A stretch of DNA of 64,000 nt from positions 33,141 through 97,140 of the forward strand of contig SDNP01000007.1 of assembly GCA_004524445.1 (NCBI GenBank), given 5' to 3'. The position numbers and the translations under genes were made by a program. The notes under the pieces are model-generated. The model ran no database searches and was not told the DNA's origin. It worked only from the letters and a program-made list of their open reading frames with translations. Source of the DNA: Candidatus Thorarchaeota archaeon. GTDB lineage: Archaea > Asgardarchaeota > Thorarchaeia > Thorarchaeales > Thorarchaeaceae. Shown piece after piece: positions 57,297 through 64,000 of this stretch (its first letter is position 1; each line of letters opens with the position of its first letter).

Positions 57297-57405
57297 TGGT
57301 GGACCGGGCGAGATTTGAATTCGCGCCAAGCGTCTCTTAGAGACACAAGGTCTCGCGACCTTCTCGATGCGAACGAGACGATCTACCGGACTAATCTACC
57401 GGCCC
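57297..57405 (-). tRNA. tRNA-Ala(CGC) with 32-nt intron in the T-arm at 53/54 (57320-57351)
   Basis: Acceptor GGGCCGG/CCGGTCC (G3:U70) plus ACCA; anticodon arm TCTCG-TTCGCAT-CGAGA; junctions [CGCG]AG|A and [CGCG]AA|T. Confidence 0.9.
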
Positions 57406-61947: not shown

Positions 61948-63139
61948 TTACTCCACGGGGCAAGATTGCTTCGCGTCCAACGGTGTCATGTCGGATGCTA
62001 TTGGCAATTGCCAAGCGATGATGACAAATGATTTCCAGACGCGAGTACAAAATGCGGACGTGAGATAGACTGGCGCACGAGTGCCAGAATCCCCTCAGGT
62101 CTAAGATATGCTCAACAGTGTGCAGGTAGTATTGGGTAAGACATCCCGTCTAACCTCGTCATGCCTGTACTTCATCAAGTTTAATGTGTGCTTTAGTAAT
62201 GTGTACAATTTGCCGACTCTAGCATCGGCAGCAGACCCTTGCCGGTTGTGTACATGGTAAGATCAACTCTAGTTGATCCTGCTAGAGGACACTGCTATCG
62301 GCTTGGGGTTAAGACATGCAAGTGTAACGAACTCACATCCGAGTTCGTCGCAAACGGCTCAGTAGTGTCGTTAACCTACCCTGTAGAGGCGGAAAACGCC
62401 GGGAAACTGGCGGTAATTCGCCATAGGAGCATTGTTCTGGAAATGATATTGCTCTCAAATGGGTGCTCTAGGTATGTAGAGCTCACCGCTGCAGGACGGG
62501 ACGGCAATGGATCATACTTGTAAGTGGGGTAATTGCCCACTTAGGTTATGACCCGCGCGGGCGATGTAAGTCGTGGCCCGGAGAAGGGAACTGAGACAAG
62601 GTCCCTAGCCCCACGGGGCGCAGCAGTTACGAAACCTCACCAATGCGCGAAAGCGTGAGTGGGCCAAGCCGAGTGACGGGAGATAATTCCGTCTGTGGCG
62701 GTACCGTAGTATGGTCCGCTAGAAAGGAGAGGGCAAGGCTGGTGCCAGCCGCCGCGGTAAAACCAGCTCTTCGAGTGGTGTCCATGATTATTGAGCTTAA
62801 AGCGTTCGTAGCCGGTTTAGTAGGTCCCTGCTTAAATCCGGCCGCCTAACGGTCGGCCTGGTAGGGATACCGCTTTACTTGGGGATGGGAGACGGTGACG
62901 GTATTCCAGAGGTAGGGGTGAAATCCTATGATCTCTGGAGGACCACCAGTGGCGTAGGCGGTCGCCGAGAACATGCCCGACGGTGAGGGACGAAACCCAG
63001 GGGAGCGAATCGGATTAGATACCCGAGTAGTCCTGGGCGTAAACCATGCCCGCTAAGTGTTGCATTGGCCACGAGCCATTGCGGTGCTGTAGCAAAAGCG
63101 ATAAGCGGGCCGCTTGGGAAGTACGGTCGCAAGACTGAA

Positions 63140-63208
<69 letters not shown>

Positions 63209-63613
63209 GCTTGCGGTTTAATTGGACTCAACGCCGGAAATCTTACCTGCCCAGACAGCCGAATGAGAGCCAGGTTGATGACCTTGCTCGACGAGCTGAG
63301 AGCTGGTGCATGGCCATCGTAAATTCGTGCCGTGAGGTATCAGCTTAAGTGCTGCAACGAATGAGATCCCTGCCACCTAATTGCCAGCCGGGGGCTTCGG
63401 CCCTGCCGGGGCACATTAGGGGGACCGCCATCGAGAAGATGGAGGAAGGTGGGGGCCACGGTAGGTCAGTATGCCGCGATATGGGCAGGGCCACACGCGT
63501 GCTACAATGGCCGGGACAATGTGTTACAACGCCGAGAGGCGAAGTCAATCACTAAACCCGGTCGTAGTCGGAATCGGGGGTTGGAACTCACCCCCGTGAA
63601 CCTGGAATCCCTA

Positions 63614-63643
63614 TCATCTGTAGACTCCCTATAGATGGGGAAA
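63614..63643 (+). other. 16S intron 2 (30 nt, after about 1346)
   Basis: Removal restores GGAATCCCTAGTA; hairpin CATCTGTAG/CTATAGATG; [TCCC]TA|T and [GGGA]AA|G. Confidence 0.9.
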
Positions 63644-63683
63644 GTATCCGCGTGTCACTAACGCGCGGAGAATACGTCCCTGC

Positions 63684-63713
63684 CGGCGCCGAGATTACCT
63701 CTGTGCCGGGGAA
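63684..63713 (+). other. 16S intron 3 (30 nt, after about 1386)
   Basis: Removal restores GTCCCTGCTTCTTGCACAC; [CCCT]GC|C and [GGGG]AA|T. Confidence 0.88.
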
Positions 63714-63816
63714 TTCTTGCACACACCGCCCGTCGCTCCATGCGAGCGGGTTTGGGGTGAGGCTGTGTCCATTGGGCGCAGACGAATCTTGGGCTCGCAA
63801 GTAGGGAGAAGTCGTA

Positions 63817-63846
63817 ACTGAGTTACGCTTCGTGACTTGGCGATCA
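63817..63846 (+). other. 16S intron 4 (30 nt, after about 1499)
   Basis: Removal restores GAAGTCGTAACAAGG; hairpin CTGAGTTACG/CGTGACTTGG; [GTCG]TA|A and [CGAT]CA|A. Confidence 0.9.
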
Positions 63847-63878
63847 ACAAGGTATCCGTAGCGGAAGCTGCGGATGGA

Positions 63879-63910
63879 AGAAGGTGAGAGTCATTCTCGT
63901 CTTCCATTAT
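63879..63910 (+). other. 16S intron 5 (32 nt, after about 1531)
   Basis: Removal restores TGGATCACCTCCT; hairpin GAAGGTGAGA/TCTCGTCTTC; [GATG]GA|A and [CATT]AT|T. Confidence 0.9.
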
Positions 63911-64000
63911 TCACCTCCTAAGACTTTTTGTCTCTAAGAGGCAAAAGCAGTAGAAGTGCGGGTATGACGGGTTAGCGGTGCAACGTAGGTTGCTCCTGAA

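Follow-up and report, generated by a model that had tools for sequence, protein, structure and literature searches.

Two putative hairpin introns place helix 45 and the anti-Shine-Dalgarno on separate exons of a Thorarchaeota 16S rRNA gene

The 16S rRNA gene of a Candidatus Thorarchaeota archaeon carries two short inserts close to its 3' end, here called introns 4 and 5, and we consider it very likely that both are archaeal hairpin introns of minimal size with a relaxed bulge-helix-bulge (BHB) motif, near-neutral passengers that are spliced on an early precursor. Both must be removed to obtain a working ribosome, and the order in which this would happen appears to be a structural necessity, unlike a regulated checkpoint.

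Results

The window, i.e., the whole 64,000-nt stretch of DNA analysed here, is the end of contig C9 in a 2.79 Mb assembly that is 90% complete, and the contig stops 81 nt past the 3' end of the 16S gene (Table 1). This is the only 16S gene in the assembly, which likewise holds a single copy of helix 45, and since no 23S gene was found in the assembly, its rRNA loci are incomplete. Five inserts of 30–32 nt each interrupt the gene and leave exons of 874, 444, 40, 103, 32, and 9 nt, the last being 9 nt long only once it is 3'-trimmed, as its precursor version continues into the trailer. The spliced product is collinear with E. coli rrsA. The Rfam match (1212.6 bits) ends at 63852, thrown off by the inserts, and the Rfam annotation of the 16S thus stops ~70 nt before the true gene end. 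The exon and intron labels are putative, as they derive from the sequence.

Table 1. Putative features of the 16S rRNA locus in the window (positions within the 16S in E. coli numbering).
Feature	Coordinates	Strand	Remarks
Leader strand of predicted leader-trailer processing stem	62148..62173	+	predicted pairing
16S rRNA gene, archaeal, Thorarchaeota-type	62266..63919	+	six exons; 1502 nt after excision of five inserts; RF01959
Intron 1, 30 nt, after 908	63140..63169	+	central helix 3/4, A-G mismatch
Intron 2, 30 nt, after 1346	63614..63643	+	central helix 4/4
Intron 3, 30 nt, after 1386	63684..63713	+	central helix 4/4
Exon 4 end (1494-1499)	63811..63816	+	5' strand of intron-4 central helix, from the decoding-site strand of helix 44; also two bulge bases
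Intron 4, 30 nt, after A1499	63817..63846	+	central helix 4/4, 3-nt bulge on each strand, inner hairpin 9-10 bp
Exon 5, 32 nt (1500-1531)	63847..63878	+	helix 45 plus 8 nt
Intron 5, 32 nt, after A1531	63879..63910	+	central helix 4/4, 3-nt bulge on each strand, inner hairpin 10-11 bp
Exon 6 (1532-1540), entire anti-Shine-Dalgarno	63911..63919	+	predicted mature 3' end
3' trailer, cut by contig end	63920..64000	+	63953-63976 predicted to pair with leader

An earlier note on this DNA had read the gene end as helix 45 on a 32-nt micro-exon followed by the anti-Shine-Dalgarno on a terminal exon, and this reading holds, as the boundaries of introns 4 and 5 were exact and their excision gives a canonical 16S. 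Its placing of the decoding centre in the same region stood in part. The micro-exon contains helix 45 with its GGAA loop (63863–63866) and the KsgA targets A1518/A1519 (63865–63866), but A1492/A1493 (63809–63810) lie on exon 4 and, together with 1494–1499, precede intron 4 (63809–63816 in all).

Elsewhere in the window, a tRNA-Ala(CGC) gene (57298–57405, minus strand) carries an insert of ~32 nt in its T-arm region, the hairpin of which has an 11-nt stretch in common with the first trailer hairpin of the 16S (63929–63939); this may be chance. ARAGORN called introns in 19 of the 34 tRNAs of the assembly, and a selenocysteine tRNA is found on contig C49. In relatives with longer contigs, neither tRNA-Ala nor 23S follows the 16S.

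In each insert, a four-base stretch close to the 3' end pairs with a four-base stretch of the exon close to the 5' junction, each strand carries a 3-nt bulge with the junction after its second base, and the remainder forms a hairpin of 9–11 bp. In introns 4 and 5 alike, a 4/4 central helix together with a fully paired inner stem arises in a single register out of nine, which is the one restoring the canonical 16S; letter shuffles of the insert yield such a core at P ~1e-4 (intron 4) and 2e-4 (intron 5). The exon-exon outer helix of the strict hBHBh' motif is missing, with 0 bp in intron 4 and 1 bp in intron 5, and the two introns are thus of the relaxed HBh' class, outside the strict motif. 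Taken together, we strongly infer from these letters that introns 4 and 5 are spliced. A group I identity was rejected, as the inserts are single hairpins of 30–32 nt with no Rfam intron match, and so was exon skipping, since the core that exon 4 would form with the end of intron 5 pairs at 2/4 positions only.

Both cores borrow strands of the mature 16S. Intron 4 takes 1494–1497, the helix-44 strand next to the decoding adenines, and the central helix of intron 5 uses G1526–G1529 (63873–63876), the basal 3' strand of helix 45, in agreement with the pairing to the 3' part of helix 45 that the earlier note had described. In ViennaRNA predictions, which treat the RNA alone without protein binding, the intron-4 core of this organism was the ground state in short context and gave way to a rival when more upstream sequence was included (+1.6 to +4.7), while the intron-5 core was located 4.5–6.5 kcal/mol above competing folds in this organism and 0–4.9 above them in relatives. 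The rivals of the intron-5 core were an intact helix 45 with a side hairpin, or a 9-bp stem into which intron 5 can slip; the upper six helix-45 pairs and the GGAA loop are predicted to remain formed alongside the core. In a comparison of precursor and mature folds, as the note had suggested, the cores are incompatible with the mature helix-44 top and helix-45 base, and for intron 5 the lowest-energy prediction is a fold other than the core. Since the intron-5 core and the wider-context intron-4 core lie above the best folds, the enzyme or the folding kinetics would have to select a minor conformer.

The pairing is maintained in relatives, as the hairpins of both introns covary and the intron-side helix is kept by compensatory change (18 and 14 copies, respectively). 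In a gapless alignment of 18 distinct copies of intron 4, 94.9% of the cells were paired and two-sided changes were found at 7 of the 9 inner pairs (slid controls 23–56%); 94% of the central cells were paired, with four copies having G-A at one end of the central helix. The 14 gene-borne copies of intron 5 were 95.4% paired and their central helix 100%, with a single compensatory change there, in a divergent 16S end; most two-sided changes came from two divergent copies, and intron 5 is far less diverse than intron 4. For both introns the copies are related to one another, and the counts hence overstate independence. The same core was also observed at 908, 1340, 1346, and 1386 in the family (86 species-level genomes), and at 1500.

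The wider survey revealed further inserts. Introns placed one base further on, after A1500, have their own matching central helix (L131, L142, L146), and another Asgard family has an intron of its own at 1499 in four genomes, as well as BHB introns in helix 45 after 1513 and 1527, with unrelated sequences (L151–L154, including L151:381–412, minus strand, and L152:187–218, plus strand). In genome G057 (L031/L049), where the 3' part of the 16S is of a different archaeal type from the 5' part and a chimera is possible, an unrelated intron at 1531 has a compensated central helix. Site 908, occupied by a 30-nt hairpin here, holds introns of 740–900 nt in L119, L120, and L121, and further short introns were seen in relatives near 700, 1340, 1363, and 1375. 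An apparently split 16S in genome G010 was discarded as a scaffold gap. Genome G003 (contig C2, L024:1358–1517, minus strand) has an 89-nt insert in the GGAA loop of helix 45 that reads as three BHB mini-introns, one of 30 nt after G1517 and two of 29 and 30 nt in tandem after A1518, leaving the KsgA target A1518 as a 1-nt exon; the second and third central helices form only once the preceding intron has been removed (order A, B, C).

Many relatives also harbour spare copies of the 16S tail, which comprise helix 45 with intron 5 and the anti-Shine-Dalgarno as well as ~150 nt of trailer. Downstream of the 16S, each copy closes a 1–9 kb set of accessory genes; in L058–L068 and L102–L122 such tail rows separate accessory blocks, many of them PIN-toxin-like by eye. 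Intron 5 was present in 34 of 45 spare tails, compared to about one third of the genes, sometimes where the resident gene is without it. The 5' limits of the tails fall between 1498 and 1514, longer spare copies having counted as genes, and intron 4 is therefore excluded from them. Intron 5 probably travels with duplicated 16S tails, which in relatives close gene cassettes downstream of the gene. No tyrosine integrase that could serve the spare tails was found in four of the five genomes tested, and in the fifth it was not at the arrays. In the genome of the window, tail-type copies are of the distal trailer only, without helix 45, and are situated on contig C4 (2370–2405, 6400–6436, and 7306–7342), which may continue the contig of the window. 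A similar module is found just downstream of the 16S in three genera (L060:2673–9476, L069:6417–13475, and L070:7388–15724), in which a very large ORF (~1,700 aa, or split) is divergent from a 570–612 aa protein with a Cas12f1/TnpB-type zinc-ribbon domain. A more far-reaching proposal, that micro-exons, 32 nt long in this gene and 1 nt in that of a relative, are spliced one by one in a set order to build the 3' minor domain and that the rate of this step gates the formation of the decoding centre, with the terminal exon and intron 5 exchanged between cells in the duplicated tails, appears unlikely to us.

The genome encodes candidate enzymes for the splicing. Two EndA-domain proteins of the (alpha-beta)2 type, encoded on contigs C49 and C33, were identified; the catalytic subunit is nearest to A. 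pernix 3P1Z (E 7.5e-50) and retains Tyr, His and Lys as catalytic residues. Its alignment is free of gaps across the Crenarchaea-specific loop and places its Lys42 on Lys44, the residue of A. pernix EndA tied to broad specificity (PMC3241643). The second subunit is without the catalytic His. As RtcB is also encoded, on contig C19 (E 1e-180), the host would possess an EndA able to cut relaxed motifs and a ligase for joining. Genes for KsgA and a Nob1-type PIN protein are present, and no homing endonuclease (PF00961, LAGLIDADG_1) was found in the 90%-complete genome.

The terminal exon appears to be in use. Shine-Dalgarno (SD) motifs precede 50% of the operon-internal ORFs, compared to 13% in shuffled sequence and 3% further upstream, and such strong usage indicates that exon 6 is needed. 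In line with this, exons 5 and 6 do not vary across 23 gene-borne copies of intron 5, in contrast to the orphan copies, 19 of 32 of which have changes in helix 45. The base after the SD core, considered as a test of pairing with A1531 against the last U of the intron, was T in 32% of cases versus 29% in the background (n = 92).

These observations bear on the alternative that the inserts are cut without ligation, or that intron 5 is retained, which would result in a fragmented or 3'-altered 16S like those with bacterial intervening sequences. Such an outcome would fit the lack of an outer helix to hold the exons after cleavage, as well as the prediction that the BHB of intron 5 is a minor conformer, less stable than an intact helix 45 with a side hairpin. 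We nevertheless regard it as quite improbable, given that RtcB is encoded, that SD motifs are heavily used and exon 6 does not vary, and that a ribosome would hardly tolerate intron 4 in its decoding region or 89 nt in the GGAA loop of a relative. Bacterial intervening sequences, moreover, sit in variable helices.

The distribution of the two introns is patchy. Of the 42 gene ends compared within the order, both introns are found in 9 and neither in 18; a further 10 carry intron 4 alone and 5 carry intron 5 alone. The co-occurrence gave a Fisher p of 0.11 with kin that are not independent. All four states occur within a single genus, and the 16S genes of genomes G082 and G086 differ in intron 4 although their exons are 99.73% identical. 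On an exon-only tree of 25 genes, at least seven changes of state are needed for intron 4 and at least six for intron 5. In two genomes the intron contains a short copy of the start of exon 6. The micro-exon is thus an optional by-product of two independently varying introns.

For this reason, the suggestion of the earlier note that splicing could act as a checkpoint is not supported, at least in the form of introns retained so that EndA/RtcB activity gates late small-subunit maturation, a reading that we consider very unlikely. It could draw on the mutual exclusion between the cores and the mature helix-44 top and helix-45 base, on the clustering of introns from Asgard genomes within helix 45 and the final 200 nt, and on the presence of KsgA and the Nob1-type PIN gene. 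However, the absence of both introns from 18 of 42 gene ends, their differing between near-identical genes, the repeated changes on the tree and the non-significant co-occurrence all argue against it, no regulatory feature was found within the inserts, and mobile rRNA introns typically cluster at conserved sites anyway (PMC4496867). Splicing that most relatives do without amounts to a constraint, not to a conserved control.

Finally, we regard it as extremely improbable that a pseudogene, a spare tail joined in error or an assembly artefact accounts for the gene end, for although the contig stops so soon after the gene, relatives hold many decaying tails with intron 5 and the 23S is missing, the exons are undamaged, the assembly has one 16S and one helix 45 only, a same-genus genome has both introns at 99.3% exon identity with a continuing trailer, and the intron pair recurs in nine genomes and in independent metagenome contigs.

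Discussion

We propose that the tRNA-splicing endonuclease would cut after the second base of each bulge and that RtcB would ligate the exons, and that this would take place on an early precursor, ahead of the mature pairing of helices 44 and 45 and of KsgA-stage maturation. The early timing is suggested by the need of the cores for 1494–1497 at the top of helix 44 and 1526–1529 at the base of helix 45, both of which are used otherwise in the mature fold. That splicing precedes late small-subunit maturation had been proposed in the earlier note, and this geometry supports it. KsgA is a late-acting enzyme in H. volcanii, where its step follows the reopening of the circular precursor (PMC10351888), and by analogy splicing before KsgA is likely in our organism too. 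Splicing would also come ahead of 3' trimming, because without an exon-exon helix the cut exon 6 would be held chiefly by the trailer through its predicted pairing with the leader, and perhaps in addition by a 4-bp pairing of 1503–1506 with 1534–1537. The introns would be cut singly, one after the other, as otherwise the 32-nt hairpin exon would be released. An early action of EndA on this precursor is assumed, since no strict BHB was found in the window's part of the leader-trailer processing stem or in the same-genus genome, and matches in other genomes were scattered and inconsistent. Over time, the introns would be gained and lost among close relatives, with selection keeping the inserts removable.

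Short (<50 nt) hairpin BHB introns are known from the 16S of Thermoproteales, Desulfurococcales, and Aigarchaeota, at 13 loci from 374 to 1391 that include 908 (Jay and Inskeep, 2015, PMC4496867). Ours share with them the size class, the hairpin fold, the BHB core at the junctions, the conserved sites, the patchy distribution and locus 908, but 1346, 1386, 1499, and 1531 are not among the 13 loci and the host is an Asgard archaeon. With the non-canonical tRNA introns of archaea, which have relaxed hBH or HBh' motifs and are served by (alpha-beta)2 EndA (PMC4090602; PMC3241643), they have in common the central and intron-side helices, a weak or absent exon-side helix and an encoded EndA with the specificity loop, whereas here the introns sit in an rRNA, which offers no folded tRNA body to keep the cut exons together. 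An archaeal group I intron at SSU/1498 (Nawrocki et al., 2018, PMC6125680) lies one base from intron 4, marking the decoding region as a known target of archaeal introns, but it is a self-splicing ribozyme of hundreds of bases, and inserts of 30 nt are too small for its core. Late small-subunit maturation by KsgA/Dim1 and Nob1 (PMC10351888; PMC8339473) likewise involves helix 45 and the 3' end, and homologues are present here; however, those steps are near-universal and protein-driven, unlike the optional, enzyme-removed introns described here. The literature searched, which left most subscription journals outside, yielded no report of BHB introns at 1499 or 1531 and none for the 16S of Asgard archaea, and within this literature introns 4 and 5 are a known kind of hairpin intron at previously unreported sites.

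Introns 4 and 5 show no new control step in ribosome assembly. Intron 4 splits the site of the 1492R primer, and as the Rfam annotation also ends early, such genes can be missed or mis-annotated. In conclusion, the two introns would widen the range of protein-spliced rRNA introns in Asgard archaea to include the decoding region and the anti-Shine-Dalgarno, and may offer small, defined substrates for studying how an EndA of relaxed specificity and RtcB keep tiny exons in order.
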